NCBI GenBank assembly: GCA_965222075.1
Contig: OZ244937.1
Span: 4,864,001-4,928,000 of the forward strand
DNA length: 64,000 bases
Direction: 5' to 3'
Origin: Candidatus Latescibacterota bacterium
GTDB lineage: Bacteria; Latescibacterota; UBA2968; GCA-2709665
Within the stretch, counting starts at the first letter, position 1. The number at the start of each line of letters is the position of its first letter. Under the pieces are notes generated by a model. The model did no database searches and was not told where the DNA came from. It worked only from the letters and a program-made list of their open reading frames with translations. The translations under genes and the position numbers were made by a program. This document shows, one piece after another, positions 35,616-55,912 of the stretch.

Positions 35616-37643
35616 TCAAAACCACTGATGCACCCGGTGCCCGTGGTTTGGAAACCAGATGCTATCCACAACGATCCCCAAGGCTACGGCAAGTATATAG
35701 CCGATGAGTACGCCGTAGAAGAACGGCTTCGTCTCACGGTAGAAGGACGCCCCGGCGATCCGGATTGTCAGGTATTTTGCCGCCCAGGCAATGAATATGG
35801 TCGTGCTGGTCAGCCGTGTGAGCGACATCCCCGACAGGGCGAAACCGACCGGGTGCAGTGGCCACCAGGAAAACCGGTAGCGCATCAGATTGATCAACAC
35901 CATACCGGCTGCACCGCCCAGGAAAAACCCGTAGTCCGCCGGTACTACCGGAGTGGGGCTCAACACCTCGCTTACCGCCTTCTGGTACTGCCAGGGGCCA
36001 TTGCCGATGATCAACCAGTTGGGTCGAAAGTTGTAGCCGCCGATCGTATATCCCAGCCAGATGTTGTAAAGCGTGGAGGTAACCATCCCGACGACGAAGG
36101 CCGAGCTTAACGCCCAGAATAGTCGGCGTTTTCCCTGGGTCATGGAATCTGCCAGACGGTTGATATGGACCAGCGGCATCATCAGGAAAGCTCGATAGTG
36201 GGTCATCGGAAACCATGCCAGGCAAGAGACCGCGTTTGTGGGGCCCTTGAGGGCCTCTGCTCCACCCAGCAGCGTCACAGAAAGATTCCAGGCGGAGGTC
36301 GGTGGATTCGTGTAGATGAGTCCGGAATCCACCACGACCTTGGTCACGCCAAGAAACAGAATCAGCATAAAGGGAATCAGGAGCAGAATAAGTCTCAAAT
36401 CGATCCCGATCCGGTTCAGCCAGGTTGCAACATAAAGGCAGCTGAGAACCAAACCGATCAGTGCGGTCCGATAGGAGAGCAGCTCCCTGCTGTCGTCTGT
36501 GGGAGAGCGATCCGGATGGAGGGCCTTTTGAAAGACCTCGCGCAGATGCGGACGAGAGATCCAGACCCACCACAGGACCAGCGCCACGAACGCCCCGGTG
36601 GTCTGCCATCGGAACGACCCCGTCGTGTAGTGAGGGGAGGTGGCCGCCAGCCCCAGGCGATTCAGGGCCCCGGCCTCGAAAATGTAGAGGATGTCAAAAA
36701 ACCAGATGCTGAAGAGGACCTCCAGACTGGCGAAATAGGAGAAACAGATTACTACCGTGCTGAGATTGATGAAGATGGGAGGGTAGTATTCGGAATAGAA
36801 GATCCAGTTCCACTGGGCCACCGGAAAGGTCGGAACGTGAGGATAGAACCAGGAAATCATGTTCCAGCAAAAGATCGTCAGAATCAGGATGAAACCGGTC
36901 CAGAAGGCTTTTCCCACCATGATCTCCGGCACCACTCTCCTCCCGGTGCCCGCCTGAGCCGTCAACTCCGCAATTGGGGTGATCATGGGATAGATCAGCT
37001 TCTCATTGTCCGACCATTGCCGGTGAATGATTACCGATGCGCACACACAGGCGAATCCCACGGCACAGATCAGTATAAACCACGAGATGAGTGGTACCGT
37101 CCATACATTCCACGGGATGGCAGCCCCTCCTGGCAGCCCCTCGTAAAACCAGCTCATGGCTCCACTCTCGTTGGTTGGTACAAGCCAACTCGGGAGGTAG
37201 GGATGAAGATACTCGGACCACTGGTTTTCCGGACTCGCGAAGTAGTAAGGCGCTGAAATGATCCCGACAAGATAGCCGCTCACGCCGTAGGTGGGACCGT
37301 AAGCCCCGACAAGCCCCATCGAGAAGATCGTGATCCATTCCGTTTGCGAGAACACAAACCACCGCCCGAACCAGCGGGCCAGGGCCGCAAAGAGGAGCAT
37401 GGACAGCAGAAAGAGGACAAAGTTCGACATCGGCATGTGGCTGAAGGCCATATAGGATCCATGTTGCGCAAAACGGACCGTATTGGCCAGCATGCCCACG
37501 GCCGCAGAAAGTAAAATTCCGAACGTGAACGCCCGGGGCGTGACCCCTCGCCCGGGATGTCTTCCCGCAGTACCCCCCAGATCTTTTTCCAGCGCGCCTC
37601 CAGATCGTCCCCGAGATACATTCCGCTCCTGGGATTCGCTCAT
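35616..37643 (-). CDS. DUF6785/DUF6784-like membrane protein, paralog 2
   Basis: YFASPENQW, HRQWSDNEKLIYP, SYRTAL, WWPLHPVGF, PFFYGVLIG. Confidence 0.75.
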   Translation of the reverse strand: MSESQERNVSRGRSGGALEKDLGGTAGRHPGRGVTPRAFTFGILLSAAVGMLANTVRFAQHGSYMAFSHMPMSNFVLFLLSMLLFAALARWFGRWFVFSQTEWITIFSMGLVGAYGPTYGVSGYLVGIISAPYYFASPENQWSEYLHPYLPSWLVPTNESGAMSWFYEGLPGGAAIPWNVWTVPLISWFILICAVGFACVCASVIIHRQWSDNEKLIYPMITPIAELTAQAGTGRRVVPEIMVGKAFWTGFILILTIFCWNMISWFYPHVPTFPVAQWNWIFYSEYYPPIFINLSTVVICFSYFASLEVLFSIWFFDILYIFEAGALNRLGLAATSPHYTTGSFRWQTTGAFVALVLWWVWISRPHLREVFQKALHPDRSPTDDSRELLSYRTALIGLVLSCLYVATWLNRIGIDLRLILLLIPFMLILFLGVTKVVVDSGLIYTNPPTSAWNLSVTLLGGAEALKGPTNAVSCLAWFPMTHYRAFLMMPLVHINRLADSMTQGKRRLFWALSSAFVVGMVTSTLYNIWLGYTIGGYNFRPNWLIIGNGPWQYQKAVSEVLSPTPVVPADYGFFLGGAAGMVLINLMRYRFSWWPLHPVGFALSGMSLTRLTSTTIFIAWAAKYLTIRIAGASFYRETKPFFYGVLIGYILAVALGIVVDSIWFPNHGHRVHQWF

Positions 37644-37865
37644 AGAAAGCCTCCGAGGATAAGGAGGGTGGGTGTTGACCTGGGATTGTCTCACATCGCT
37701 TGGCCTGACCAACGAATCTGCTCATGGGCTGATGCCACAGTATAGCTGTCATGCGCTCACAGTCAACCTTTTTTTGTCCCTTAACTCAGCTGTTCGGGAA
37801 AATTTTTTGTTGATCCGGGTGAAGCAATGTATTAACATTCAGGCCTTAGCATAGCAGATAAACGA

Positions 37866-37965
37866 CCGCCGGAGACCAACTTCCTGGTAGAGGTAGGGCC
37901 GGCGGCCTGCAGGGTGATGCGAGGCGGCTCTACAGTCTTCTCAGATGTCCGATAGAGAAGGCTGT
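37866..37965 (+). ncRNA. Candidate structured cis-regulatory leader, copy 1
   Basis: 68/83 identity to 53504-53586; conserved stems; lies between a promoter-like TTGATC..TAACAT and ATG 38005. Confidence 0.6.
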
Positions 37966-38004
37966 CCGGATGACGATGCCACATTTTTGAAAGGGGGTTC
38001 CTGT

Positions 38005-40083
38005 ATGGGAACGTCTGAGACCTATCGCAGGAAAATAGCCGTTGATCACACGAAGGTCTCAGATGAGGATCTGACCGACTTTCCACTGCTCATTGTCTTA
38101 GAGGACAGCGCGTTGAAGGGTGTGGCTTACGGCGGCGCCCAGCAGAAGGGTGAGGATATCCACTTTATCGGGGCCGACGGCAGTCGGCTGGACGGCGAGA
38201 TCGAGCGTTACGATGCCGCTACAGGCTCTTTGAGGGCGTGGGTGAGGATTCCGAGGCTTTCGCATACTGCGGATACGGAGATTTTCCTCTGTTACGGTCA
38301 GGGGAGCAGTGCTGGTGAGGGGTCGGTTTGGGGCTCGGGCTACCGGCTGGTCCGGCATTCGAATACCGCGCCGGGGGGGCATGAGATCGTTCTCCACGCC
38401 GAGGATTTGAACCTCAGGGATGCGATTACGGTGGAGGCCTGGTTTCACAGTGAAGAGGGGAGGTCAGACGCGTTTCAGGCGCTGGTGTCGAAGTGGTCGC
38501 TGCGTTCTGAGATGGATGCGTTTGAGACTTACGATGCTGAAAATACGGATGGCCTGGACACCAGGGGATTCTTCGGGGCGGTGTGCGACGGGCGGTATAT
38601 CTATTTTTCGCCTCAGTCCAACAGCAGCGGGCGCCACGGGGAGGCGCTGAGGTACGATTCTTATGGCGCATTTACGGATCCGGCGAGTTGGGTGGGGTAT
38701 TCTGCGGGAAGAACGGGGGAGATGAATACCAGAGGCTATTACGGGGCCGTCTACGACGGGCGGTACGTTTACTATATTCCGCGCAGGGACAATGACGGTT
38801 TTCACAACCGGGTGCTGCGGCACGATACGCGAGGAGACTTCAGAAGCCCGGAAAGCTGGTCCGCATTCGATGTAGGACATCAGATCTCCTATCAGAGCGG
38901 CGCGTTCGACGGGCGCTATGTGTACTGGGTTCCGGGGTTTGATGATTACGACCACGGCAACAGCGGCAGGGTGATGCGCTACGATACACAGGGCGCGTTT
39001 GACAATGCCCAGAGCTATGTCCTGTACGATGCGGGAAACACCTCCGGGCTGGGTTCGAAATGCTATGACGGGGCCTGCTTCGACGGGCGATACGTGTATT
39101 TTGCCCCGCTGGACGGCAATGAGAACAAGGGGATTGCGCTCCGGCTTGATACGGAAAGCGATTTCTCCTCGCCGGAGAGCTGGGCGGCTTTCGACGCGAA
39201 GGGGTCGGGGTTAGGCGTGTGTGTGGGCGCGATTTTCGACGGGCAGTATATCTACTATGTGCCTTATGCACACAGCGTGGTGGTTCGTTATGATCCCCAG
39301 GGAGATTTTCAAGACGTGGGAAGCTGGGAAGCGTACGATGCTGCGGATACGTCCGGTCTGGATACAACCGGATACGACGGCGCTGCGTTCGACGGACGCT
39401 ACGTCTATTTTATTCCCTTCCGGTACGGAAAGCAGAAGTTCACAACACCCCATGCCTGCCTGCTGCGTTACGATACGGAGGCGGGTTTCACAGATCCGGC
39501 AGGCTGGGACGCCATGGATGCAGGGGCGCACACGTCCAATCCGGGGGGGTTTAACGGGGGGACGTTTGATGGGCGCTACGTTTATTTTGCTCCCTGGCGG
39601 TTGGGCACCGATGAAAACGGCGGCATTATCAGCCACGGACAGGTGCTGAGGTACGATACCACAGATTCGGATGCTTCGTTTATCCTTAAATACGCGGAGT
39701 GCGGACATAACGGAGGGCTGTGCGCTGCCCTGCCGGGGCCGACGTTTTCGGTGAATACGTCCGAAGGGGTGCGCAATGTGCGGGCAAATCGCTCGCCCGG
39801 TCCGGGCTGGCACCACGTGGCGGGGGTTTACGACGGCGCCCGGCTTACTCTCTACGTAGACGGTGTCCCGGTGAACGAAGCGGAGGGAACGGGTTCCATC
39901 CAGGCCGGGCAGGCAGATGTTGGCATCGGCCGGATTGCGGGCGGGGGGGCGCAGTTCAAAGGGAGGGTATCCGAGGCCCGGATTTCGGATACGGCCAGGT
40001 CCGGGGCGTGGATTCAGACGACGTACCGGAATCTGAAGGCGCCTCATACGTTTGTCAGGGTTGGAGAGGAAGAACAGGAATAG
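38005..40083 (+). CDS. DUF2341 + LamG-like domain with inserted 7-repeat (FDGRY) beta-propeller, paralog 1
   Basis: DFPLL..GEDIHF..LDGEIERYD..AWVRIP; seven DGRY-type repeats; WHHVAGVYDG..LYVDG..EARIS..WI. Confidence 0.75.
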   Translation: MGTSETYRRKIAVDHTKVSDEDLTDFPLLIVLEDSALKGVAYGGAQQKGEDIHFIGADGSRLDGEIERYDAATGSLRAWVRIPRLSHTADTEIFLCYGQGSSAGEGSVWGSGYRLVRHSNTAPGGHEIVLHAEDLNLRDAITVEAWFHSEEGRSDAFQALVSKWSLRSEMDAFETYDAENTDGLDTRGFFGAVCDGRYIYFSPQSNSSGRHGEALRYDSYGAFTDPASWVGYSAGRTGEMNTRGYYGAVYDGRYVYYIPRRDNDGFHNRVLRHDTRGDFRSPESWSAFDVGHQISYQSGAFDGRYVYWVPGFDDYDHGNSGRVMRYDTQGAFDNAQSYVLYDAGNTSGLGSKCYDGACFDGRYVYFAPLDGNENKGIALRLDTESDFSSPESWAAFDAKGSGLGVCVGAIFDGQYIYYVPYAHSVVVRYDPQGDFQDVGSWEAYDAADTSGLDTTGYDGAAFDGRYVYFIPFRYGKQKFTTPHACLLRYDTEAGFTDPAGWDAMDAGAHTSNPGGFNGGTFDGRYVYFAPWRLGTDENGGIISHGQVLRYDTTDSDASFILKYAECGHNGGLCAALPGPTFSVNTSEGVRNVRANRSPGPGWHHVAGVYDGARLTLYVDGVPVNEAEGTGSIQAGQADVGIGRIAGGGAQFKGRVSEARISDTARSGAWIQTTYRNLKAPHTFVRVGEEEQE

Positions 40084-40207
40084 GAGAGGCCGTATGCACA
40101 GTGAAAAGCCCTTACGCGTCCGGAACCGAAAACAGATGTTTATCGATGACAGCGGTTTCTTGAGCGGTTTGGAGTTTTGTGATACAGATTGAGGTTAGAA
40201 CAGGCCT

Positions 40208-42148
40208 ATGACACGGCGCGCATTTATTATCGGACTTATCATATCCGCACTCACCACCCTCTGGCCGACCTATTCCAGCCTGATCGTCGGCTCTTCTCGG
40301 GCCGATTTTGCGCATCTGTCGGATGCGCTCCTCATCCCCTTTATCTGTCTGCTGGGGATTAACCTGATGCTGAGCCGGCGGAGGGACGGGCTGTCTCCGT
40401 CCGAACTTCTGACCATCTGCTGCATGGGGATGATCGCCGGGATGATGCAGGGGGAATGGCTCTCGGGCTATCTCTTAGGTGTGATTACGGCTCCCACCTA
40501 TTTTGCCACGCCTGAAAATCGATGGGCCGAAGTTATTATTCCCCATATGCCCGACTGGAGCATTGTGGCGGACAGGCCGGCCAGCATCGGATTTTACGAG
40601 AGCCTGCCGAAGGGGGCGAACATTCCGTGGGCGCCCTGGATCGCTCCGTTCCTGTGGTGGGGAGGCTTTATGGCCGCCGTGCTCCTGGCCGGCTTCTGTT
40701 CGATGATCCTTCTCCGGAAGCAGTGGATGGAGAACGAGCGGCTGGCCTTTCCGATTGCGACGGCCGTGCTGGAGCTGACCGGCGTTTCCGGTTCGGAGGG
40801 GACGCTTTCGAACCTGGTCCGGTCCCGGCTGTTCCGGATTGGCTTCTGGGCTGTGCTGCTTCTGTTTTTCTGGACGATCGCTACCTGGTTTATGCCGACG
40901 ATTCCCCTGCTTGAGTTTCCGATGACTTCGCTGTCGGCCAAGCGAATCCTGCTGGGGAAGGGGTTTCCCCCGTTCATGTTCTCGGTCCATCCGATGACGA
41001 TTGCGTTCAGCTATTTCACCAAGTCGGAGGTGCTGCTGAGCATCTGGTTCTTCCACTTGCTGGCCATCCTGCAGGTGGGGATTTTCAGCCGGATCGGCTT
41101 CGACATCGGAGGCTCGGACCCCTGGTGTTCGTTCGATCCGGCGATCGGATGGCAGAGTTTTGGGGGGATGATCGTGTTCGTGGGCTGGGGGCTGTGGACC
41201 GCCCGGGCGCATTTGAAGGAGGTCTTCCGGAAGGCATTTACCAGAAGGGGAGAGATCGACGATTCCGAGGAGCTGCTTTCCTACCGCACGGCGGTCTATC
41301 TGCTGCTCGCATCTGTGATGTATCTGATTTTCTTTCTGCGCCGGGCCGGAATGGACTGGGGGCCGCTTCTCGCCTTCTGGTTCGGGACGTTTATCCTCTA
41401 TATGGGGCTTGCGCGGATTATCGTGGAGAGCGGGCTGGTCTACCTGCGGGGGCCGATCACCGCGCAGGCGTTTACCTGGCACCTTTTCGGGATTGCCGGA
41501 TTGGGACCGCCCAGTGCGGTGGCCCTGGGGCTGACGTACACTTTTTTCTGTGATGCCAAGACGTTTGGCGTCACCGCGCTTGCCCACATTCCCCGATTTG
41601 GCGTTGCGATGAATCCGAGGCGCCGGCGGCTCCTGGTGCCGGCCGTTCTTGCAGGCGGGCTGGTGGGTGCGGTGACCGTTATCGGATATATCCTCCACCA
41701 GGGATACCACGTGCTGGGGAGTTACAATTTCGGTGTGGTCAGTTTCAACGGATCCAGCGACGGCGCAGTGGGGATCTGGTCGCTTACCACCAGCCGCATT
41801 CTGGAGGGGACGTTCGGAACGGACTGGAACCGGCTGAGCTTCTTAGGGATCGGCGCACTGGTTACCTGTCTGCTATTTTATTTCAGGTATCGGTTTCCCA
41901 CCTTTCCGATCCATCCGATCGGGTTTACGATTTCCGCTTCGGGCGTTCTGAGAAGCAGCGTGGCTTCGATTTTCCTGGTGTGGGTTACCAAGATCCTGCT
42001 GCTGAAGCTGGGAGGCTTAGACCTCTACCGCCGGACGGCTGTGCTTTTTCTGGGGATGGTGTTGGGGTATCTGACGGGGGTCGGGCTGGGGATTATCGTG
42101 GATACCATCTGGTTTAACGGGAATGGGCATAAGCTCAACGATTGGTAG
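40208..42148 (+). CDS. DUF6785/DUF6784-like membrane protein, paralog 3
   Basis: YFATPENRW, LRKQWMENERLAFP, SYRTAV, FPIHPIGF. Confidence 0.75.
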   Translation: MTRRAFIIGLIISALTTLWPTYSSLIVGSSRADFAHLSDALLIPFICLLGINLMLSRRRDGLSPSELLTICCMGMIAGMMQGEWLSGYLLGVITAPTYFATPENRWAEVIIPHMPDWSIVADRPASIGFYESLPKGANIPWAPWIAPFLWWGGFMAAVLLAGFCSMILLRKQWMENERLAFPIATAVLELTGVSGSEGTLSNLVRSRLFRIGFWAVLLLFFWTIATWFMPTIPLLEFPMTSLSAKRILLGKGFPPFMFSVHPMTIAFSYFTKSEVLLSIWFFHLLAILQVGIFSRIGFDIGGSDPWCSFDPAIGWQSFGGMIVFVGWGLWTARAHLKEVFRKAFTRRGEIDDSEELLSYRTAVYLLLASVMYLIFFLRRAGMDWGPLLAFWFGTFILYMGLARIIVESGLVYLRGPITAQAFTWHLFGIAGLGPPSAVALGLTYTFFCDAKTFGVTALAHIPRFGVAMNPRRRRLLVPAVLAGGLVGAVTVIGYILHQGYHVLGSYNFGVVSFNGSSDGAVGIWSLTTSRILEGTFGTDWNRLSFLGIGALVTCLLFYFRYRFPTFPIHPIGFTISASGVLRSSVASIFLVWVTKILLLKLGGLDLYRRTAVLFLGMVLGYLTGVGLGIIVDTIWFNGNGHKLNDW

Positions 42149-42244
42149 ACATGGACAGACAGCGAACGGTCGAGGGCAGCAATGGATGGCCAGGATATGG
42201 GGCTGGAGAATGAAACCAGCCCCAGGCTATTTGAAGCGTTTTCT

Positions 42245-43963
42245 ATGAAAATCGGTGGTGTCACGTTCATTCTTTTTCTGCTCCTGGCCATTCTGTCAGG
42301 CTGCTCACCTGATGCGCCCCCGGGTGTTGAGAAGGAAAAGATCGGCGAGGCGGGCGTTGCCGCCGGTCTGGGAACGCCCACCAAAGGCGGCACGTACGTT
42401 CTGGCCTACGGGGCTCCGGCCAACGCGTGGACGCTTGCGCCGATCTGGGATGGCTTCGATTTTCAACTCCTGCTCTACCCGTTTATCTACAATGCGCTGG
42501 CCGAGATGGGCGAAGACCTGCTGGCGTTCAGGCCGGGTCTGGCCGAACGCTGGGAGATCTCCGAAGACGGCCTGGAGGCCACCTTTCACCTGCGCAGGGA
42601 CGTGAAATGGCAGGACGGTCAGCCCTTTACGGCCGAGGACGTGGTGTTCTCAGTGAGGGCGTGGTTCTTAGTTGAGGATGCGTTTATCAACGATCCTCTG
42701 CTGGCGCTCCTGAAGGGCGCGCCGAAGTATCGCGAGGGCAAGGCTGAGGAACTGCCGGGGGTTGCGGTGGTGAGCCGGTACACGGTCCGGTTCTCCTTCG
42801 CACAGTCCAATCCGCTGTTTTTGTACGAGCTGAACCGGCGGCCGATCATGCCGAAGCACCTGCTGGAGGGAAAGATCCGGCGGGGGATGACCTTAGCCGA
42901 TGTGGGCGAGCTCGCGTTCGCCAAAAGGCCGGTGGGCACAGGACCCTTCAGGGTTGCGGCTTTTAAACCGGACGAGTATGTGGAACTCGAAAGGAATCCG
43001 GGTTATTTCCGGGGCGGACCCTATCTGGACAGGATTGTTATCCGTCTGGTTTCGACAGAGACGGTCATCGCGACGGGGCTGGAAACGGGTGAGATCCATT
43101 CGGCAGTGATCTGGAACAAGGAGCACTACCCGCGCCTGTTCTCGCTGGATCAGATCCGGGTCTGGGAAGATCCGGCAGCCACCGGCACTTTCAGTTTGAT
43201 TCCCAACCTGCGCTCCGAACGGAAAGGCCATCCGCTGCACGATGCGCGGTTCCGCAAGGCGATTCTGTATGCGATTCCCCGGAAGAAGATCTGCGATCAC
43301 CTGAGGATGGTCAGCCACCCGGCGCCGAATCAGGCGTATTCTCCCCGGTTTTTAGAGGGCCTTTCGTTGACGGATTACAGGTATAATCCGGAGAAGGCCA
43401 GGGAACTGCTGGCGGAGATGGGTTACGATCCAAAGACGGCGCCGGAGCTTATCTTAGCGCATCTGATTTTCGATAAGAGTCCGGAGCAACCGGCCATGCA
43501 GCAGGCCTTAGCTGAGGTGGGTATTAAGGTGAAACTGCTGGCGCTGGAGCCTCCGGCGGTGGTCAAGATGGTGGCGAATGCCGAGGGATGGGACCTGTTT
43601 CAAAGGTACCTGTCCCAGCACCCTGACCCGGGGTGGATGATCGGCGATCTCATCAAGTGCCAGGGGCCGCCGTGGGAGGTGTGCGGAATGGGGGCGATGT
43701 TCACCTGGAAGCCCACGCGTCGATACGTTGAAATCGAGCAGCTGCAGAGGGCAGAGCTGGATGCAGAGAGGCGGAAGGCGCTGCTGCAGGAGGGGATTCT
43801 GATTCTGGATCGGGAGATGCCCACGATTCCGCTGTGGACCGAGCCGAATGTCTACTTCATCAGCAAACGGGCGCACGGGAAGCACAACGGGGTGTACAAA
43901 TACGGCGCCGAGGTACACGTCAACATCGGGGCGGAGACGTGGTGGCTGGAACCGGAGGGCTAA
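42245..43963 (+). CDS. ABC substrate-binding lipoprotein, family 5 (peptide/nickel type), copy 1
   Basis: Lipobox LSGC; PGLAERWEISEDG..TFHLR.DVKWQDG.PFTAEDV.F; PVGTGPF. Confidence 0.9.
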   Translation: MKIGGVTFILFLLLAILSGCSPDAPPGVEKEKIGEAGVAAGLGTPTKGGTYVLAYGAPANAWTLAPIWDGFDFQLLLYPFIYNALAEMGEDLLAFRPGLAERWEISEDGLEATFHLRRDVKWQDGQPFTAEDVVFSVRAWFLVEDAFINDPLLALLKGAPKYREGKAEELPGVAVVSRYTVRFSFAQSNPLFLYELNRRPIMPKHLLEGKIRRGMTLADVGELAFAKRPVGTGPFRVAAFKPDEYVELERNPGYFRGGPYLDRIVIRLVSTETVIATGLETGEIHSAVIWNKEHYPRLFSLDQIRVWEDPAATGTFSLIPNLRSERKGHPLHDARFRKAILYAIPRKKICDHLRMVSHPAPNQAYSPRFLEGLSLTDYRYNPEKARELLAEMGYDPKTAPELILAHLIFDKSPEQPAMQQALAEVGIKVKLLALEPPAVVKMVANAEGWDLFQRYLSQHPDPGWMIGDLIKCQGPPWEVCGMGAMFTWKPTRRYVEIEQLQRAELDAERRKALLQEGILILDREMPTIPLWTEPNVYFISKRAHGKHNGVYKYGAEVHVNIGAETWWLEPEG

Positions 43964-43977
43964 GGGTGAGATTCAGG

Positions 43978-45678
43978 ATGAAGATTAGCGCGGTGGTATG
44001 GACGCTTTCTCTGTTCTTAATCGCGCTCTCGGGTTGTGCATCAGAACCGTCCCGGGAGGAGCGGGCTGGCGTTGTCGACCGCCCGAAGATGCCCGTTAAA
44101 GGCGGCACGTACGTGATGGCCTACCACGGGCCGCGCCACGCCTGGACGCTTTCGCCCTTCTGGGACGGGTTCGGGCATCAGATTGTGATCAACCAGTTCC
44201 ACTACAATACGCTGGCCGAGCTGGATGAGGATATGCAGACGTTTGCGCCGGGTCTGGCCGAACGCTGGGAGGTTTCCAACGACAGGAGAGAGGTGACCTT
44301 TCACCTGCGCAGGGACGTGAAATGGCAGGACGGTCAGCCCTTTACGGCCGAGGACGTGGTGTTCACGGTGCGGGCGTGGTTCTTGGTTACAGACGCCTAT
44401 GTCGATGAGCCGATTCTGACGTTGCTGAAGGGCGCGAGGGCGTATTTCGAGGGTGCGACGGAAAAGCTGCCGGCGGTTGCGGCGCTGGACCGGCATACGG
44501 TCCGGTTTACTTTTGCACAGCCCAGCCCGCTGTTTATGGACGAGCTGAACCGGCGGCCGATGATGCCCAAACACCTGCTGGAGGGCAAGGTCCGGCGGGG
44601 GATGACCTTAGCGGATGCAGGTGCGTTGGATTTTGCTAAAAAGCCGGTGGGAACCGGTCCTTTCAAGGTGGTCGATTACAAGGCGGACGAGTATATCCTT
44701 TACGAGAAGAATCCGCACTATTTCCGGGGAGAACCCTATCTGGATAAACTTATCGTGCGGCTGGTGTCGTCGGAAACGCCGATTGCCACCGGTTTGGAGA
44801 CGGGGGAGATTCACGCGGCGGTGATGTGGAACAAGGAGCACTTTCCACGCCTGTTTTCGCTGGATCACCTCACGGCGTGGGAGGATTCGATCGCGTTTGG
44901 TTCGTTCAGTCTGATGCCCAACATGCGCCCCGAGCGCAAAGACCATCCGCTGCACGATGTGCGGTTCCGGAAGGCGATGCTGTACGCGATTCCCCGGAAG
45001 AAGATTGCGGAGAACCTGCGGGTGGTAAGCCGTGGCGTGCCCAACCAGGTCTATTCACCCCGGTTTTTGGAAGGACTGCCGCTGACGGATTACAGGTACA
45101 ATCCGGAAAAGGCCAGGGAACTGCTGGCGGAGATGGGCTACGACCCGGAGGGGGCGCCGGAGCTTATCTTGGCGCACCTGATTTTCGACAAGAGTCCGGA
45201 GCAGCCGGCGATGCAGCAGGCCTTAGCTGAGGTGGGCATCAAGGTGAAGCTCCTGGCGGTTGAGACCGCAGGGGCGATCAGCCTGGTGGCGAACGCCGAG
45301 GGGTGGGACCTGTTTCAAAAGTACTCGCCGCAGTATCCGGATGCGGGATGGATGGTCAGCGATATGCTGAGGTGCTCCGGTCCGCCGTGGGAGCCGTGCG
45401 GGTGGGGAGCCATGCACACGTGGAAGCCGCCACCACGTTATGCGGAGATCGAAAAATTACAGCGGCAGGAGCTGGATCCGGAGAGGCGCAAGGCGCTGCT
45501 GCAGGAGGCGATTTTGATCCTGGATGAGGAGGTACCGGCGCTTCCGCTTTGGACGGAACCGAACGTCTATTTTATCAACAAACGGGTGCACGGGATGCAC
45601 AACGGGGTGTACAAATACGGGGGCCGCGTTCAGATTTACGTTGGGGCGGAGACATGGTGGCTGGAGCCGGAAGGTTGA
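43978..45678 (+). CDS. ABC substrate-binding lipoprotein, family 5, copy 2 (tandem paralog)
   Basis: Same motifs; long identical stretches with copy 1. Confidence 0.9.
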   Translation: MKISAVVWTLSLFLIALSGCASEPSREERAGVVDRPKMPVKGGTYVMAYHGPRHAWTLSPFWDGFGHQIVINQFHYNTLAELDEDMQTFAPGLAERWEVSNDRREVTFHLRRDVKWQDGQPFTAEDVVFTVRAWFLVTDAYVDEPILTLLKGARAYFEGATEKLPAVAALDRHTVRFTFAQPSPLFMDELNRRPMMPKHLLEGKVRRGMTLADAGALDFAKKPVGTGPFKVVDYKADEYILYEKNPHYFRGEPYLDKLIVRLVSSETPIATGLETGEIHAAVMWNKEHFPRLFSLDHLTAWEDSIAFGSFSLMPNMRPERKDHPLHDVRFRKAMLYAIPRKKIAENLRVVSRGVPNQVYSPRFLEGLPLTDYRYNPEKARELLAEMGYDPEGAPELILAHLIFDKSPEQPAMQQALAEVGIKVKLLAVETAGAISLVANAEGWDLFQKYSPQYPDAGWMVSDMLRCSGPPWEPCGWGAMHTWKPPPRYAEIEKLQRQELDPERRKALLQEAILILDEEVPALPLWTEPNVYFINKRVHGMHNGVYKYGGRVQIYVGAETWWLEPEG

Positions 45679-45736
45679 GTGGGAACTGCAAATTGGTTTT
45701 GGCGACCCCCATCCCGGGGTACGGCATGCCATGCCC

Positions 45737-46585
45737 TTACATATCTTCCACCCAGTGGCGGTAGAGGGGCTTTACATCGTCGGGCAGGGACTCGTAGACA
45801 TCCCTTTTTACGGGCGTGGATTCGTAGTTTTTCTCTCCTGTTTCAACCACCATGCGGGTGTGCTCCGGGGCGCCGATCATGGTGGGATTCAGGTTCAGCC
45901 ACCAGGGCGCATAGCGGACGATGAGGGCTACGCGCGGCCTGTCACTGCGGTTGGGCGCGACCGCGTGCCAGAGCCGGCTGTCGTAGAGAAGCACGCTGCC
46001 TGCGCTGCCGGAGACCTGGATCTCAGCCGGATGTGGGGCATCGGCGTCAACGCCCTCCATCCCTCCTGCCGAGGGATTGTTGTTCATCCGGTGGCTGCCG
46101 GGCAGGACGAACGTGCCGCCCGTTTGGGGACTGAAGGGTGAGAGCATCCAGATGGTGGACAGGTGCATGATCGCGTCTGGGTAGGGCGCCGGGATGCGCG
46201 ACGCGTTGGTCTGATTGAAGGGCCAGTCCGCATGCCAGTAGCCGCGCTCGTTTCCGGGATGGTTGATAACACAGTCGGTGCAGGAGATCCGCACGTATGG
46301 ACCGAACACGGCCTCGGCGATGTCCAGAATTCGCCGGTCTGCCAGATAGGGGGCGAAGGTCTGAGTGTGGTTGATGACCTGATTCAGGTTTCCGACGCCT
46401 TTGACGCCTACACGGTGACCGCGAGCTCTGGTCTTTTCCAGTTTCGCCCGCGATTTTTCATCATGGGCCGCCTGCGCTGCCACCACGCTGTCCCGCAGGT
46501 TGTCCATCCTGTCTTCGGAGATGACGCCTTCGATCACGCAAAACCCGTTCATCTCCAACTGGAGCGATTTTTCACTGACAGACAT
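45737..46585 (-). CDS. Phytanoyl-CoA dioxygenase family Fe(II)/2OG oxygenase
   Basis: WHADWP (HxD), GGTFVLPGSH, GSVLLYDSRLWHA, R.ALI. Confidence 0.9.
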   Translation of the reverse strand: MSVSEKSLQLEMNGFCVIEGVISEDRMDNLRDSVVAAQAAHDEKSRAKLEKTRARGHRVGVKGVGNLNQVINHTQTFAPYLADRRILDIAEAVFGPYVRISCTDCVINHPGNERGYWHADWPFNQTNASRIPAPYPDAIMHLSTIWMLSPFSPQTGGTFVLPGSHRMNNNPSAGGMEGVDADAPHPAEIQVSGSAGSVLLYDSRLWHAVAPNRSDRPRVALIVRYAPWWLNLNPTMIGAPEHTRMVVETGEKNYESTPVKRDVYESLPDDVKPLYRHWVEDM

Positions 46586-46677
46586 TGTTCCCTCTGCGGT
46601 TTTCAGGCTCGTAGCGTGTTGACCGTTTCCCGTTTGATAGTCAATATATCACGGCACAACGGAGAGTCAAGCATTTA

Positions 46678-46731
46678 ATGTGCGTCAACATTATCGGCGC
46701 GGAGACCTGGTGGATGGAGCCGCAGCTTTAG
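46678..46731 (+). pseudogene. C-terminal relic (17 codons) of a third substrate-binding protein
   Basis: MCVNIIGAETWWMEPQL* versus VNIGAETWWLEPEG* and IYVGAETWWLEPEG* at the ends of the two SBPs. Confidence 0.75.
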
Positions 46732-46741
46732 GGGGGGTGTT

Positions 46742-47713
46742 GTGAACCACTTTTTAATTCGACGGTTGCTGGTGCTGATTCCGGTTTTTCTGGGGGTTAC
46801 GTTTCTGAATTTCGTGCTGATGAATCTGCTGCCGGGAGATGCGGTGGACGCGATGATCAACCCCCGGGACTCGCAGCGCTGGACGCCGGAACAGATCCAG
46901 GCGAGGCGCGTTTCGCTGGGCCTGGACAAGCCCTGGTCCGTGCGATATGTGATCTGGCTGAAGGAGCTGGGGAAAGGGAACCTGGGGTATTCTTACTTCA
47001 CCAAGAAGCCGGTGATCGAGGAGCTGATCGCGCGTATGGGAGCGACGCTGAAGCTCCAGGTCGTTTCGTTCACGGTGGCCATCATATTTGGTATTGCGCT
47101 GGGTGTGTATTCCGCGCTCAGACAGTATTCTTTTTTTGATTACCAGTTCACGCTGTTCACCTATATGGGGATTTCCATCCCCACGTTCTTTTCCGCGCTG
47201 GTGATTATCTACGTGTTCGCCGTGAACCTGCGCTGGTTTCCCACCTCCGGCCTGCGGGTATACGGTGGGGAATCGTCCATTCTGGAGCAGCTGTGGTATA
47301 TGGCGCTGCCCACTTTTACCTTAGCCATCGGGAGCTGGGCAACGGTTATGCGCTTCTGTCGCACGAGCATGCTGGAGGTTTTGCAACAGGACTTTCTGAG
47401 GACCGCGCGGGCCAAGGGGCTGGCGAATCGCTCGGTGATCCTCCGCCACGCGCTGCGCAATGCGCTGCTACCGGTGATTACGATTATCGGGTTGAGCATC
47501 CCCAGACTCATTACCGGCTCCATCCTGGTTGAGACGGTTTTCGACTGGCCGGGGATGGGACAGTACAGCGTGCTGTCTATCGGACGGCGAGACTACCCCG
47601 TTTTGATGGGGGTGACGGTGATTTTCTCACTGGTTGTCCTGTTGAGTAATCTGTTGACGGATATTGCTTATGCGGTGGCCGATCCACGCATTCGGTACGA
47701 CCAGGCGAGGTAG
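46742..47713 (+). CDS. ABC permease, OppB/DppB-like
   Basis: LIRRLL, LPGDAV, RTSMLEVLQQDFLRTARAKGL..HALRNA EAA loop. Confidence 0.92.
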   Translation: MNHFLIRRLLVLIPVFLGVTFLNFVLMNLLPGDAVDAMINPRDSQRWTPEQIQARRVSLGLDKPWSVRYVIWLKELGKGNLGYSYFTKKPVIEELIARMGATLKLQVVSFTVAIIFGIALGVYSALRQYSFFDYQFTLFTYMGISIPTFFSALVIIYVFAVNLRWFPTSGLRVYGGESSILEQLWYMALPTFTLAIGSWATVMRFCRTSMLEVLQQDFLRTARAKGLANRSVILRHALRNALLPVITIIGLSIPRLITGSILVETVFDWPGMGQYSVLSIGRRDYPVLMGVTVIFSLVVLLSNLLTDIAYAVADPRIRYDQAR

Positions 47714-47732
47714 GTTTTTTGGGGGGAGTTGG

Positions 47733-48671
47733 ATGGAGACAGAGCCGCGCAAAGATCAGATGGCGCAAATAGATTTACACACAACGGAAGCCGAATCGGT
47801 CCGGGAGAAGGACTATTCCCTCGCGGCCTTGACGTGGCGGCGGTTTCTGCGTCACAGGATGGCGGTGGTTTCGTGCGGTTTGCTCGGGCTGGTGGTCCTG
47901 ATGGCCGTTCTGGCCGATTTCATCGCGCCCCGGGGGCCATACGCGGTGGACTACGAACAGGTTCTGGCTCCTCCCGGCGCCGAACACACTCTGGGGACGG
48001 ACCGGGTGGGGCGAGACGTGTGGGCCAGGCTGTGCGTGGGCTCCAGGGTGTCTCTGGCGGTGGGGCTGGTGGCGGTGGTGATCGCACAGTTTCTGGGCAT
48101 TGTTTTCGGTTCTCTTGCGGGCTACTACGGGCGTATGGCCGACAGTGTGATTATGCGGTTGACCGATGTGATGCTCTGCTTTCCCTGGCTGATCCTGATG
48201 CTGGTGGTTGCGGCTGCCTTTGGGCCGGGGCTTTCGCGCACGATGCTCGTGATCGGGTTGATCAGCTGGCCCAGGCTGGCCCGGATTGTGCGCGCGGAGT
48301 TTCTTTCTTTGAGGGAGCGGGATTTTGTTCTGGCTGCATCCTGCCTCGGGGCGTCCGGCGGCAGGTTGATTCTGTATCACTTTTTTCCCAATGTGGTGCC
48401 TTATATGATTGTAGAGGCGACCTTTGGCATGGCCGACGCGATTTTGAGTGAGGCCGCGTTGAGCTTTCTGGGCATGGGGGTGGCGGTTCCCACGCCCAGT
48501 TGGGGCAATATGCTCCGGGATGCCCAGTCTCTCCATGTGCTGACCAACGCCCCCTGGTTCTGGCTGCCGCCGGGCATTGCGATTTCGCTGACGGTTCTGG
48601 CCATCCAGTTTATCGGCGACGGGCTCCGGGATGCGCTGGATCCCCGGGCGCTGGTCGAGTCGAGGAGGTAA
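47733..48671 (+). CDS. ABC permease, OppC/DppC-like
   Basis: WRRF.RH, LGTDRVGRDV, EAALSFLG.G..PSWG, GDGLRDALDP. Confidence 0.92.
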   Translation: METEPRKDQMAQIDLHTTEAESVREKDYSLAALTWRRFLRHRMAVVSCGLLGLVVLMAVLADFIAPRGPYAVDYEQVLAPPGAEHTLGTDRVGRDVWARLCVGSRVSLAVGLVAVVIAQFLGIVFGSLAGYYGRMADSVIMRLTDVMLCFPWLILMLVVAAAFGPGLSRTMLVIGLISWPRLARIVRAEFLSLRERDFVLAASCLGASGGRLILYHFFPNVVPYMIVEATFGMADAILSEAALSFLGMGVAVPTPSWGNMLRDAQSLHVLTNAPWFWLPPGIAISLTVLAIQFIGDGLRDALDPRALVESRR

Positions 48672-50647: not shown

Positions 50648-50735
50648 GCTCAGAATACAGGTTTTGATTGCCCAGGTCTGCTGGATGGCCTATCTTGGAA
50701 ATGATCGGACAGGTTGTCTTTTTTAGAGGACTGCC

Positions 50736-52520: not shown

Positions 52521-52566
52521 GTGCCGGGACGCGCCCGGATGACCACAGGATCGCACAGATTCCGTT

Positions 52567-52632
52567 TCAGGTATTTCGAAGCCCGGAATCGGGGATTTCC
52601 CCGGTTGCGCTTTTATTTATGGGGCGTACATT
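52567..52632 (+). promoter_or_regulatory. Operator + sigma70-like promoter, copy 1 (upstream of the response regulator)
   Basis: TCAGGTATTTCGAAG-N5-AATCGGGGA-TT-TCCCCGGTT overlapping TTGCGC, then N16 and TACATT. Confidence 0.7.
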
Positions 52633-52685
52633 GGCAATCTCTTGGATATTTTTGGCGTGCGACGGCAGACTACAGGAGGTGCGAG

Positions 52686-53339
52686 GTGAGGATCAGGATT
52701 CTCCTGGCCGATGATCACAAGATCGTGCGGGACGGCCTTCGCGCCCTGATCGAGCAGCAGGCCGACATGGCGGTGGTGGCCGAGGCGGAGGACGGGCGAA
52801 CGGCGGTGGGGCTGGTGCAGGATCTGTCGCCGGATGTGGTTGTGATGGATATCGGCATGCCGGATTTGAACGGGATCGAGGCCACCCGCCAGATTATCGC
52901 CAAGACCTCCGGCGTGAAGGTGATCGCCCTGTCGATGCATTCCGACAGGCGGTTTGTGGCGGGTATGCTCGGCGCAGGGGCGTCGGGTTATCTGCTGAAA
53001 GACGGCGCGTTCGAGGAACTGGCCGATGCGGTTCGCCTGGTGTTTGCAGATCAGACTTACCTGAGCCCCGGGATAACCGGCGTTGTGATCGAAGATTACG
53101 TACATCACGTGTCGGCGGCCCAAGACACGGTTTTGGCCGCGCTGACAGCCAGGGAACGCGAGGTGCTTCAGCTCCTGGCGGAAGGCAGATCGACCAAGCA
53201 GATTGCTTCGGATCTGGAGGTGAGTGTGAAGACGGTTGAGACGCATCGCCAGAAGGTTATGCAAAAACTAAATTTACACAGTATTGCCGATCTAACCAAA
53301 TACGCCATTCGCGAAGGGCTGACCACCCTCGAACGCTGA
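52686..53339 (+). CDS. NarL/LuxR family response regulator
   Basis: LADDH, VMDIGMP, GYLLK, LT.REREVL.LLAEG.S.KQIA..L.VS.KTVETHR; GTG 52686 after AGGAGG. Confidence 0.93.
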   Translation: MRIRILLADDHKIVRDGLRALIEQQADMAVVAEAEDGRTAVGLVQDLSPDVVVMDIGMPDLNGIEATRQIIAKTSGVKVIALSMHSDRRFVAGMLGAGASGYLLKDGAFEELADAVRLVFADQTYLSPGITGVVIEDYVHHVSAAQDTVLAALTAREREVLQLLAEGRSTKQIASDLEVSVKTVETHRQKVMQKLNLHSIADLTKYAIREGLTTLER

Positions 53340-53373
53340 CGCGCACCGGCGAAATCGTCTCATTGACGCCGGC

Positions 53374-53438
53374 TCAGGTATTTCGAAGTCAAAAATCAGG
53401 AATTTCCTGATTGCGCTTTTTTTTTTGTGATATAGATT
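53374..53438 (+). promoter_or_regulatory. Operator + sigma70-like promoter, copy 2 (upstream of the DUF2341/TonB locus)
   Basis: TCAGGTATTTCGAAG-N5-AATCAGGAA-T-TTCCTGATT (perfect palindrome) overlapping TTGCGC, then N16 and TAGATT. Confidence 0.7.
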
Positions 53439-53503
53439 GAATGTGTTATCTTACGTTATGTTATCTTATGAAATATAATGATTTACTGAAAAAATTCGTA
53501 AAG

Positions 53504-53586
53504 CCGCTGGTTACCAAACTTCCTGGTAGAGGTAGGGCTAACGGCTCGCAGGGCGATGCGAGAAGGCTCTACAGTCCCCTCACATG
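53504..53586 (+). ncRNA. Candidate structured cis-regulatory leader, copy 2
   Basis: 68/83 identity to 37866-37947; TATAAT at 53474 upstream. Confidence 0.6.
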
Positions 53587-53627
53587 CACAGATTTAATCA
53601 GCAGCCGATGTGAAGAAAGGAGCGGGC

Positions 53628-55757
53628 TTGGGCGGATTGTTTGAGAAGCGGCTGGTGGTCGATCACACGCGGGTTTCGGGGGATGGTCTGGCCGGTCTGC
53701 CTTTGCTCATTTCACTCGAAGATGAGGATTTGAAGGATAAGACGTACGGCGGCCAGGTGGCACAGGCGGGCGGTCAGGATATCCGGTTTATCGGCGCCGA
53801 TGGAGAGAGGAAATTCGGCCACGAGATTGAAGCCTACGACCCGGCAGAGGGTGCGCTGAGAGCCTGGGTGCGCGTTGAAACGCTTTCCGGGTCGGCCGAT
53901 ACGGAGCTGTATCTGCGCTGCGGAGATCCAGGGTGTGAACCCCAGCAGAACCGGAAGGGGGTGTGGGATGCGGATTACCGGCTGGTGGTCCACGATGCCG
54001 CATCGCCTGAGGACGCGACCGCCAATCCCACCGGTGCAGCCGCCGAAGAGGCGTCGGACGGGCAGCGCTGGGCGAGGGTCGCGCATGCCCAGAAGCTGAA
54101 CGTGCGCGATGCGATTACCGTAGAGGCGTGGGTGGAGAGCGATGAGGCGCGGGCCGAGGCGATGCAGTCGGTGGTGTCCAAGTGGACGCCCAGGACGCGC
54201 TTCGACCTGTTCGACGCCTACGACGCCGGCAATACCGACGGATTGGAGACCAAGGGGTTTTTCGGCGCGGTGTTCGACGGGCGTTATCTCTACTTTTCCC
54301 CCCAGCACAACAGGCAAGGCCGTCACGGTCAGGCGCTACGATACGATACGCAGGGGGCGTTCAAAGATCCGGAAAGCTGGGCGGGGTACGATGCGGGCCA
54401 CACCGACGGGCTGAATACGAAGGGGTACTACGGGGCGGTTCACGCGGGGGATTACATTTACTATATCCCGCGCACCGACGGAGAGGTGATGCACAGCCGG
54501 TTTCTGCGGTACGACCGGGGGGGGGATTTCAGGAGCCCGGAGAGCTGGAGCGCATACGATATCGGGCATCCGATTTCCTATCAAAGCGCGGCGTTCGACG
54601 GGCGCTACATCTATCTGGTTCCAGGCTCCGAGCAGGCAGGTGGTGGCAGCGGGAAGGTGGTGCGCTACGATACGCAGGGGGCGTTCAAAGATCCGGCCAG
54701 TTACACGACATACGACGCTGCAAACACATCGGGGCTGGATACGAGGTCGTACGACGGGGCGGTGTTTGACGGCCGATACGTCTATTTCTCTCCACTGGAC
54801 GCCGATGGTGTGGTGTTGCGCTACGATACGGAAGGGGATTTTGAGGATGCGGACAGCTGGGTCGCTTACGGCGCAAAGAAAGCGAGCCTGAAGCGCTGCG
54901 TGGGGGCGGTGTTCGACGGCCGATATGTCTACATTGTGCCCTACGGCCAGTCCGACCAGGCGGTGCGCTACGATACGGCGGGCGCGTTTACTGACGAGAA
55001 CAGCTGGGAGGTTTTTTACCTTCTCGACGTGCCCGGCCTGAATACGCTGGGGTTTGACGGTGCGTTTTTCGACGGGCGCTACATTTACTACAACCCGTAC
55101 TGGGACGAGACGAGCGATGCGGATGAGACCTTCCACGGCGTGGTGGTGCGCTACGATACGCAGGGCGCGTTCACCGATCCGGAAAGCTGGGACTGCGCCG
55201 ACGCCGGTTTGACGGACGGCCTCAAGACCGTGGGGTTCAACGGGGGCGCAACCGACGGCCGGTTCCTCTATTTTGGCGCGTGGATGGACAGCAGAGACGA
55301 GACGGGCAAGATTCTCGGCCACGGCCGGGTGCTGCGCTACGATGCGGTGGGCGACCAGGGCATGTTCAGCCTTCGGTACTGCGATTTGGGACACAACGGC
55401 GGCCTGTGCGCCGCCCTGCCGGGCGCGCGGTTTCTTGTGAATACGGAGAAAGGGGCCATCAGCATCGCCGCCAACCGCAGGCCGGAGCCGGGGCGGCATC
55501 ACCTGGCGGGGGTGTACGACGGAAAGACGATCCGGCTGTACATCGACGGCGAGCTTGTGAACGAGCAGGCGGGCTCGGGTGCGATTGTGAACAACCGGGA
55601 GGATGTGGCGGTCGGCCGGATCCTGAATGGCCTGGGCGGATTTGTGGGCCGGGTTAACGAGGTGCGGATCTCCGGGTGCGCAAGAAGCGGGGATTGGATT
55701 CGCACCCAGTATGCCAACCAGAGCGATCCGGCCCGGTTTTGCCGCATCGCACCGTGA
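53628..55757 (+). CDS. DUF2341 + LamG-like domain with inserted 7-repeat (FDGRY) beta-propeller, paralog 2
   Basis: Collinear with 38005-40083; TTG 53628 after AAAGGAG. Confidence 0.75.
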   Translation: MGGLFEKRLVVDHTRVSGDGLAGLPLLISLEDEDLKDKTYGGQVAQAGGQDIRFIGADGERKFGHEIEAYDPAEGALRAWVRVETLSGSADTELYLRCGDPGCEPQQNRKGVWDADYRLVVHDAASPEDATANPTGAAAEEASDGQRWARVAHAQKLNVRDAITVEAWVESDEARAEAMQSVVSKWTPRTRFDLFDAYDAGNTDGLETKGFFGAVFDGRYLYFSPQHNRQGRHGQALRYDTQGAFKDPESWAGYDAGHTDGLNTKGYYGAVHAGDYIYYIPRTDGEVMHSRFLRYDRGGDFRSPESWSAYDIGHPISYQSAAFDGRYIYLVPGSEQAGGGSGKVVRYDTQGAFKDPASYTTYDAANTSGLDTRSYDGAVFDGRYVYFSPLDADGVVLRYDTEGDFEDADSWVAYGAKKASLKRCVGAVFDGRYVYIVPYGQSDQAVRYDTAGAFTDENSWEVFYLLDVPGLNTLGFDGAFFDGRYIYYNPYWDETSDADETFHGVVVRYDTQGAFTDPESWDCADAGLTDGLKTVGFNGGATDGRFLYFGAWMDSRDETGKILGHGRVLRYDAVGDQGMFSLRYCDLGHNGGLCAALPGARFLVNTEKGAISIAANRRPEPGRHHLAGVYDGKTIRLYIDGELVNEQAGSGAIVNNREDVAVGRILNGLGGFVGRVNEVRISGCARSGDWIRTQYANQSDPARFCRIAP

Positions 55758-55912
55758 GGCTGTGTGAAGGGGACGTTTTGAGACACAGGAAAGGGGGGAT
55801 GCTGACTTATGGTTTAGGAGATAACGATTTTTCGCGTTCGGACAACACGCCTTCTGGTCCGGACAGATGTTTAACCTTTCTTAGGTTATTGATTGTAAGA
55901 AAGGAGGGAAGC

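Follow-up and report, generated by a model that had tools for sequence, protein, structure and literature searches.

A repeat pair in a Latescibacterota genome points to a phylum-restricted family of putative small RNAs beside outer-membrane uptake genes

The candidate phylum Latescibacterota belongs, together with the phylum of Bacteroides, to the Fibrobacteres–Chlorobi–Bacteroidetes (FCB) group. DonS-type small RNAs (sRNAs) of Bacteroides (Cao et al. 2016, as summarised in the sections of PMC7366714 and PMC11697453 devoted to them) are 78-128 nt long, occur several times per genome and are associated with polysaccharide utilization loci, in which they are encoded cis-antisense and divergent to genes for SusC-like TonB-dependent receptors. 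The FopS/GibS family of Bacteroides thetaiotaomicron comprises, in the parts of PMC11697453 and of the review PMC13750123 that deal with it, 14 paralogous sRNAs that have canonical promoters and end in an intrinsic terminator; the same passages name mRNAs of outer-membrane SusC-like transporters as predicted and tested targets, whose translation FopS represses by base pairing close to the start codon. FopS is ~65-70 nt long, with a single-stranded seed at the 5′ end upstream of a terminator hairpin, a structure that, according to the structural section of PMC11697453, has been deposited in Rfam. Here, we analysed a 64,000-nt stretch of a 5.36-Mb Latescibacterota genome (contig OZ244937.1, positions 4,864,001 to 4,928,000; the whole stretch is called the window), in which two copies of a conserved element precede genes for DUF2341 proteins. 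On balance, the sequence signals lead us to regard the two copies as a diverged subtype (a/b) within a so far undescribed family of ~100-nt sRNAs, a riboswitch being unlikely. No paper that deals with small or structured RNAs of Latescibacteria turned up in full-text literature searches.

The predicted Latescibacterota family is of the same kind as DonS and FopS and follows the same genomic logic, and it differs from them in sequence, fold, promoter type and phylum. Like DonS, its members are short (~95-105 nt from the predicted start to the U-run), are present in several copies per genome and lie divergent to receptor genes; like FopS, as far as the cited accounts of the latter go, they form a paralogous multicopy family with putative promoters of their own, an intrinsic terminator and a link to the outer membrane. 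No sequence or Rfam relationship to DonS, which was compared by description only, was found and, unlike with DonS, the neighbours are as often small outer-membrane protein (OMP) β-barrels as receptors. The promoters resemble TTGACA/TATAAT, unlike the sigma-ABfr type of Bacteroides, and, unlike FopS, the family combines a 5′ hairpin with a large terminator stem that carries a conserved apical region. The arrangement is also similar to that of micF and ompC in enterobacteria, where an sRNA divergent from an outer-membrane protein gene acts on porin mRNAs by Hfq-dependent trans pairing; sequence and phylum are unrelated, and this comparison is an analogy only. Metabolite riboswitches, including the cyclic di-GMP-I (c-di-GMP-I) class (RF01051), are likewise conserved structured RNAs near the 5′ end of transport-related operons, but the element matches no riboswitch model, lies mostly opposite to the gene strand and consists of two independent hairpins.

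The preliminary description of this DNA, made from its letters alone, had reported a two-copy repeat. In the coordinates used here (positions within the window; copy 1 is of the a type and copy 2 of the b type), 37866-37947 and 53503-53586 are indeed identical in 68 of 84 columns (81%), and the 22-nt word shared by both occurs exactly twice in the window (37878-37899 and 53517-53538) and not once in 100 shuffles, even with up to three mismatches allowed. When copy 1 was searched against the complete 5.36-Mb genome by BLAST, only these two places were returned at E<0.2. Among 40 relatives, BLAST found close copies in two more genomes, in one of them as a tandem pair 160 nt apart, and an initial covariance model, for which six copies were used, matched diverged copies in the family and the order. 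With a second model (R2) built from 25 sequences, the search for homologues that had been proposed succeeded on a larger scale, as matches were present in 33 of the 151 sampled genomes of the phylum; by family, these were found in 4/18 (f1), 23/30 (f2), 3/64 (f3) and 2/2 (f4) genomes and in none of the other families, and within genus g6 in 19 of 20 genomes. The number of copies ranges from 1 to 7 per genome, with four in the own genome (copies 1, 2, c and d, Table 1). Only three genomes contain the a/b type, and its 22-nt core is unchanged in 5/6 a/b copies across two genera, while P1, the closing stem, carries compensatory changes that distinguish a from b copies and one genus from another. 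When one genome of each of 185,579 species was scanned with a stringent pattern, nine loci were obtained, eight of them in records titled Latescibacterota or Latescibacteria metagenome-assembled genomes (MAGs); the ninth, titled Planctomycetota, had no model match and was discarded as a chance hit. Outside the own genome, the family was seen solely in records titled Latescibacterota, a phylum represented in this analysis by MAG-titled records only. The repeat has revealed a new, phylum-restricted family of putative sRNAs.

The preliminary description could not place the element in a known riboswitch class, and the suggested cmscan of the whole window against Rfam 15 at gathering score gave no match either. 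At E values of up to 10, the regions of both copies produced nothing on the motif but one chance 14-bit frameshift-site row, and the sole match at gathering score in 20 homologous loci was c-di-GMP-I, adjoining the motif and never on it. Tandem copies 160-167 nt apart were noticed in three genomes (L023:1491-1755, L055:2401-2669 and L059:2453-2721; L numbers denote loci containing matches, G000 the own genome, and G001 and G004 relatives). Genus g10 has an additional copy beyond the tandem pair, with an open reading frame (ORF) for a transposase-like HTH protein (~150 aa; HTH_32/HTH_29/HTH_23) between them.

That the element is a structured RNA with homologues is borne out by strong covariation for P1, P2 and P4, in a fold other than the one originally drawn. 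P1 is a closing stem of 10-12 bp, commonly GCCGUUAGC/GCUAACGGC, that encloses a small hairpin with conserved apical sequence; this P1/P2 domain is followed toward the 3′ end by the variable, covarying hairpin P4, and the 22-nt core corresponds to the P2 hairpin and the inner portion of P1. The scored structure has 33 pairs (a 12-pair P1 with two inner pairs, a 3-pair P2 and a 16-pair P4). In the independent MAFFT alignment of 25 sequences, 83.5% of cells pair, 24 of the 33 pairs changed on both sides, and the covariation score of 0.358 compares with at most 0.185 for slid partners and was reached in 0/500 shuffles. For 62 distinct model-aligned sequences, an alignment that is fitted to the model and therefore leans toward the structure, the corresponding values are 83.9% of cells, 32/33 pairs, a score of 0.406 against at most 0.126, and 0/500 shuffles. 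The fold proposed initially, consisting of an ACCA/UGGU hairpin, a GUAGGGCY/GGCUCUAC stem and an inner hairpin, found no such backing on the 25 homologues, where 316/500 shuffles reach its score, 73.7% of cells pair and 6/18 pairs changed on both sides. This fold can be drawn and is returned as one minimum-free-energy fold of copy 2, in which its hairpin 53545-53550/53557-53562 competes with P4. The extra stem reported for copy 1 is present (Table 1). Single-sequence folds of copies 1 and 2 differ little from shuffles (z -0.01 to 0.24 on the + strand, -0.86 on the − strand), and alternative pairings of the b type that share UGCGAG are without covariation. The covarying architecture amounts to two ordinary hairpin domains, with the apical loop as the conserved unpaired bases.

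The strand from which the RNA is made was assessed over the 62 distinct sequences, with + denoting the model orientation, which is that of the flanking gene. In this orientation, nearly every member has an A-run directly 5′ of P1 and a conserved TTGTCAAG ~25-35 nt 3′ of P4; on the other strand, the two correspond to a terminator tail and a sigma-70-type promoter, respectively. Promoter scores of at least 9/12 were found on the opposite strand in 35/62 members and on the + side in 3/62 (random windows, 2.3%), and scores of at least 10/12 in 25/62 and 1/62, respectively (random windows, 0.8%). An exact TTGACA is present on the opposite strand in 38/62 members, belonging to 21 of 39 sequence clusters, and in 3 on the + side, and the −10 element of the opposite-strand TTGACA-N16-18-TAnnnT, which has the form TTGACA-N17-TAnnnT in canonical members, ends mostly 5-13 nt before P4. 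Promoters on the + strand upstream of members are no better than in shuffles (at least 9/12 in 4.8% vs 7.2%). A T-rich tail (5 or more T among the 8 nt that follow the last stem) was seen in 51/62 members on the opposite strand and in 5 on the + side. In the ten core P1 pairs of the 56 non-a/b members, 36 A-C cells stand against 5 G-U cells, which we counted in favour of the opposite strand since A-C mismatches become wobbles there only. The opposite-strand folds of L067 (z -5.94 against shuffles), own copy c (-4.04) and own copy d (-3.14) are clean two-hairpin RNAs with a terminal U-run. On the opposite strand of copy c, the scanner calls TTGACT-17-TATATT. For copy d it calls none there, and the only promoter-like site called (TTGAAA-16-AATAAT, on the +, i.e., receptor, strand) lies downstream of the motif, a position that the preliminary description had named as speaking against a leader; together with the opposite-strand TTGACA, this site suggests back-to-back divergent promoters. 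The family has members with predicted promoters of their own, as stand-alone sRNA genes should, and window copies 1 and 2 are not among them.

On its terminator side, the element is in many cases directly followed by the 3′ end of a convergent ORF (mechanical ORF calls) and is, therefore, probably not a leader of a co-directional gene; a leader for a gene on that side was considered and dropped for this reason. The riboswitch-like translational switch envisaged at the outset is likewise not supported, because members with promoter and terminator signals on the opposite strand cannot be sense-strand leaders and because the covarying fold consists of two plain hairpins. Across the family, the promoter and tail signals do not place the motif in a sense-strand 5′ untranslated region, with the two window copies as possible exceptions, and the sole recognised riboswitch near a homologous locus is a c-di-GMP-I aptamer of G004, which is separate from the motif pair and lies upstream of it.

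The preliminary description had linked the element to membrane uptake, and this link was found again in the OMP β-barrel, TonB-dependent receptor and DUF2341 operons near it. We scanned 32 flanking proteins against Pfam, taken from loci in which the element is followed by an ORF of 70-80 aa or more; orthologous loci are included. Ten of the 32 were OMP_b-brl proteins, four were CarboxypepD_reg + Plug TonB-dependent receptors, two were the DUF2341/LamG proteins that head the outer-membrane uptake operons of the window, and two each were HTH transposase-like, GFO_IDH_MocA and NTP_transf_3/CDP-OH_P_transf proteins; MMPL, PhyH, a methyltransferase and Temptin/Big_9 were represented once each, and six proteins had no Pfam match. 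Receptor genes (CarboxypepD_reg + Plug) flank own copies c and d, L025 and L066, and the element is divergent to them.

Canonical members would therefore, as far as their promoter and terminator signals allow such a reading, be stand-alone sRNA genes opposite the flanking gene, encoded back-to-back with genes for OMP β-barrels or SusC-like TonB-receptors and ending in an intrinsic terminator formed by P1 and the U-run of the opposite strand. By analogy with the described systems, these sRNAs probably target outer-membrane uptake mRNAs through RNA-RNA pairing, in trans or in cis, and the C/U-rich apical region (e.g., of own copy d) could pair with the purine-rich translation-initiation regions of OMP or receptor mRNAs.

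Several observations weigh against this interpretation. Wobbles in P4 are neutral (89 G-U vs 85 A-C) and those in P2 favour the + strand (33 vs 23), and folding of the whole element prefers the opposite strand in just 41/62 members, so mild a preference that the thermodynamic strand test was not relied on. In some members, including the g10 tandem copies, the + strand gives the better fold and P4 is followed by a U-run. The P1 core of the a/b type contains 6 G-U and 3 A-C cells, and the extra hairpin of the a type, judged by eye, stays paired through U-G wobbles on the + strand only. The opposite-strand promoter-like sites of the b1 and b2 copies of G004 score 9/12, so that the b type may be an active sRNA gene in that genome. 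Many other members flank OMP_b-brl or unrelated genes rather than receptors, and the neighbour counts hold orthologous loci and a non-random sample of proteins. The RNA contigs considered below are unstranded, none of them was seen on the copy 1 motif, and the duplexes of copies c and d with the window leaders are expected from homology alone and, hence, are not independent evidence.

The two window copies stand in an atypical context. In copy 2, compared with b2 of G004 (window 53587-53627 vs L023:1420-1500 (-)), ~50 nt are missing that contain two TTGTCAAG repeats, which are direct TTGTTGTCAAGTT repeats, while the TTTAAT and the Shine-Dalgarno (SD) sequence that follow are retained. Both copies lie 40-58 nt before the SD and behind a + promoter-like site; since they are without a canonical promoter of their own, a position between these two signals probably places them in an mRNA leader. 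Most likely, judging from these signals, they have lost the canonical sRNA promoter and persist within the DUF2341 leaders as an antisense image of the sRNA, where antisense or paralogous sRNAs could pair with them. In G004, a c-di-GMP-I aptamer (RF01051; L023:1818-1960 (-); 40.7 bits against a gathering score of 35, E 1.2e-08 in a local search) lies ~45 nt upstream of the tandem b1/b2 copies in the orientation of the DUF2341-b gene and is followed, by inspection, by a terminator-like hairpin with T-run, so sense transcription through the elements is plausible there; the Rfam scan found no such aptamer in the window. Four RNA libraries with the label sponge metagenome, in which small word shares are no evidence of habitat, supply unstranded contigs (95-100% identity, depth ~2-13) that cover 37000-56500 of the window patchily, including 40255-41556, 45463-46764 and 53783-56500. 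One contig spans 37977-38154 and begins 3′ of the copy 1 motif, and contigs of two libraries (X2, X3) cover 53591, between the copy 2 motif and the start codon. Predicted duplexes of own sRNAs c and d with the window leaders reach z values of -4.6, -5.5, -1.4 and -6.3 against shuffled leaders. We consider it rather unlikely that this extends to a layered circuit in which the DUF2341 leaders carry the sRNA complement and copies c and d, as well as residual cis-antisense RNA, pair with them over tens of bases. Nothing points to ligand sensing by the window copies, which are unlikely to be ligand sensors.

The preliminary description had further presented a leader shared by two uptake loci and had missed that the downstream ORFs both encode DUF2341 + Laminin_G_3 proteins with 54% amino acid identity over ~700 aa; the repeat, therefore, belongs to a duplication of gene plus leader and is not a single motif of unrelated loci. 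Its statement that the flanks are unrelated holds for the non-coding flanks (43% identity) and not for these paralogous ORFs. The downstream coding sequences (CDS) are 61.5% identical at the DNA level, below the 81% of the element, and only 0.19% of 84-nt CDS windows reach at least 81%.

Among the alternatives for the window copies, the one that survives best, which we consider possible though clearly less probable than the reading given above, is that they are still sRNA genes of the opposite strand, transcribed from weak or extended −10 promoters and cis-antisense to the DUF2341 leaders; it is compatible with the sRNA interpretation of the family. The b1 and b2 copies of G004 retain TTGCCC-18-TACAAT and TTGACA-16-TAATTT 7-8 nt before P4, T-containing tails follow P1 on the − strand (in copy 1 the tail is moderately T-rich), and P4 of copy 2 forms a 10-bp helix with three G-U pairs on the − strand only, which by inspection are three C-A mismatches on the + strand. 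A weak T(T/C)GTCA-N16-TATC(T/G)G was seen by eye in a suitable position in three a-type loci, but this candidate −10 element has no final T, the best − strand promoters score only 8 in copy 1, where the site is misplaced by 32 nt, and 6 in copy 2, and the − strand folds reach a z of just -0.86.

A + strand RNA acting as a cis leader at the window loci, i.e., as a riboswitch or as a switch that binds a protein or the ribosome, for instance by pairing of the CUUCC loop with the SD, appears unlikely to us, and a metabolite riboswitch much more so. Loop/SD complementarity of 37878-85 with 37992-99, as originally noted, does exist (by inspection 8 pairs, 2 of them G-U), but it is to be expected for any pair of CU-rich and purine-rich sequences. 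The + promoter-like sites directly upstream of both copies, of which that of copy 1 is kept in three genomes, the gap of just 40-58 nt to the SD, the lack of an Rfam match and a core that is invariant in 5/6 a/b copies of two genera while P1 covaries would all suit a leader, as would the U-G wobbles of P2 and of the a-type hairpin that function on the + strand only and the alternative pairings that, by inspection, share UGCGAG. Against this, the other 56 distinct homologues mostly point the opposite way, the RNA has two plain hairpins without a multi-helix junction, the proposed fold lacks covariation, the copies fold no more stably than shuffles, and three genomes with the a/b type are too few for a subtype-specific structure.

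It is improbable that the window copies are decaying, functionless relics of sRNA genes carried along in the duplication of the DUF2341 gene; the lost canonical promoter, the ~50 nt by which copy 2 is short of the G004 b locus and the poor thermodynamic signal of both strands would fit, but not an identity of 81% where the CDS reach 61.5% and the flanks 43%, nor a core invariant across two genera beside compensatory changes in P1. A DNA-level element, such as an operator, a promoter of the sigma-54 type (TGGC...GC inside P2/P1) or a repeat resembling repetitive extragenic palindromes or miniature inverted-repeat transposable elements, is very improbable despite the conserved P1 sequence, GG/GC doublets 12 nt apart in some members (by inspection) and copies that are tandem or adjoin transposase-like HTH ORFs, because the spacing shifts by indels between subfamilies (62-sequence alignment, by inspection), GAGC or GGGC replaces the −12 TTGC of a sigma-54 promoter, whose GG and GC doublets keep a fixed −24/−12 spacing within TGGCAC-N5-TTGC, compensatory changes on both sides of 32/33 pairs indicate a folded single strand, genomes carry only 1-7 copies and a consistent promoter and terminator frame the element.

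Table 1 Coordinates of the elements, their parts and the surrounding genes (window positions unless a contig is named).
Feature	Position	Strand	Remarks
Divergent DUF6785/DUF6784 gene	35616-37712	-
Promoter-like TTGACT-16-TATACT of this gene	37766-37739	-
Promoter-like TTGATC-N17-TAACAT	37810..37838	+	read from the sequence; scan 8/12; 24 nt before P1; putative function
Copy 1, a-type RNA element	37859..37962		model R2 73.1 bits, E 1.4e-15; strand not assigned
Copy 1 P1	37866-37872 with 37899-37905		compensatory changes vs G004a
Copy 1 invariant 22-nt core	37878-37899
Copy 1 P2	37879-37883 with 37890-37894
Copy 1 3′ domain	37906-37947
Copy 1 a-type-specific hairpin	~37935-37962
SD AAAGGGGG	37990-37997	+	gene start ATG 38005
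DUF2341 + Laminin_G_3 gene	37990..40083	+	692 aa; gene to 40083
DUF6785/DUF6784 gene	40208-42148	+	downstream of copy 1
Two SBP_bac_5 solute-binding proteins	42182-43963, 43834-45678	+	downstream of copy 1
DUF6785/DUF6784 gene	48500-50647	+
GAF-HisKA_3 kinase	50736-52520	+	two-component gene upstream of copy 2
NarL-type regulator	52521-53339	+	two-component gene upstream of copy 2
Terminator-like hairpin + T-run	53394..53412	+	closes the upstream two-component genes
Promoter-like TTACGT-N17-TATAAT	53451..53479	+	read from the sequence; scan 9/12; ~21 nt before P1; called one base leftward in register
Copy 2, b-type RNA element	53497..53601		model R2 73.2 bits; strand not assigned
Copy 2 P1	53503-53510 with 53538-53545
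Copy 2 core	53517-53538
Copy 2 P2	53518-53522 with 53529-53533
Copy 2 P4	53556-53566 with 53576-53585
TTTAAT, conserved	53593-53598	+
SD AAAGGAG	53616-53622	+
Probable TTG start	53628	+	from alignment with the paralogue
DUF2341 + Laminin_G_3 gene	53593..55757	+	709 aa; gene to 55757
OMP β-barrel	55676-56629	+	copy 2 operon
TonB-dependent receptor, CarboxypepD_reg + Plug	56643-59876	+	copy 2 operon
803-aa protein without Pfam match	59902-62313	+	downstream of copy 2
Own copy c	G000:C1:5322609-5322708
Own copy d	G000:C1:4434151-4434247

In the alignment of the own genome with the orthologous loci of G001 and G004 (three genomes), the + promoter-like block before copy 1 is kept, with indels tolerated just 3′ of it, as is the promoter block of the divergent DUF6785/DUF6784 gene; the + promoter-like site before copy 2 is not conserved at the G004 b locus. 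The window contains three paralogous DUF6785/DUF6784 genes within 15 kb (Table 1), interspersed with DUF2341/LamG, SBP_bac_5 and two-component system genes, and the region looks like an expanded family of uptake loci. Downstream of the copy 2 operon, an ORF encodes a PorV-like protein (type IX secretion; 62336-63319 (+)). Further short BLAST matches in the own genome (L003-L015) fell into coding sequence or had chance E values and were dropped, as were L018 and L021 on the same grounds. Two of these loci, L003:1350-1650 and L004:1350-1650 (G000:C1 ~3.2138 and ~3.2221 Mb), which came up solely through chance 20-nt matches to the motif, are highly similar stretches ~8.3 kb apart and probably the ends of paralogous genes. 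Elsewhere in the family, extended SD-like words GAAAGGAGG(TGA) were noticed on the strand of the neighbouring gene a few bases past the putative sRNA promoter (e.g., L067:1630-1650, L056:1680-1700 and L073:1640-1660); the real SD and start follow 90-250 nt further downstream, and the words have no ORF after them. They call to mind the 5′ 'STAB-SD' mRNA stabilisers of Bacillus; a type I toxin was considered and dropped, because by eye no small ORF follows these words in L056, L067 and L073.

The family presented here lends itself as a candidate regulator of nutrient uptake at the post-transcriptional level in Latescibacterota, and divergent sRNAs beside outer-membrane transporter genes, known in Bacteroides, may be a broader trait of the FCB group. 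It also calls for caution in annotation, as a conserved structured element 5′ of a gene is not necessarily a leader and may instead represent an sRNA gene of the opposite strand. If the layered circuit were true, the expression of several outer- and inner-membrane uptake operons would be coupled, read-through controlled by the second messenger would meet antisense sRNAs head-on in a related genus, where the module lies downstream of a c-di-GMP-I riboswitch, and the control of SusC-like transporters in the manner of DonS and FopS would extend from Bacteroidota to another phylum of the FCB group.

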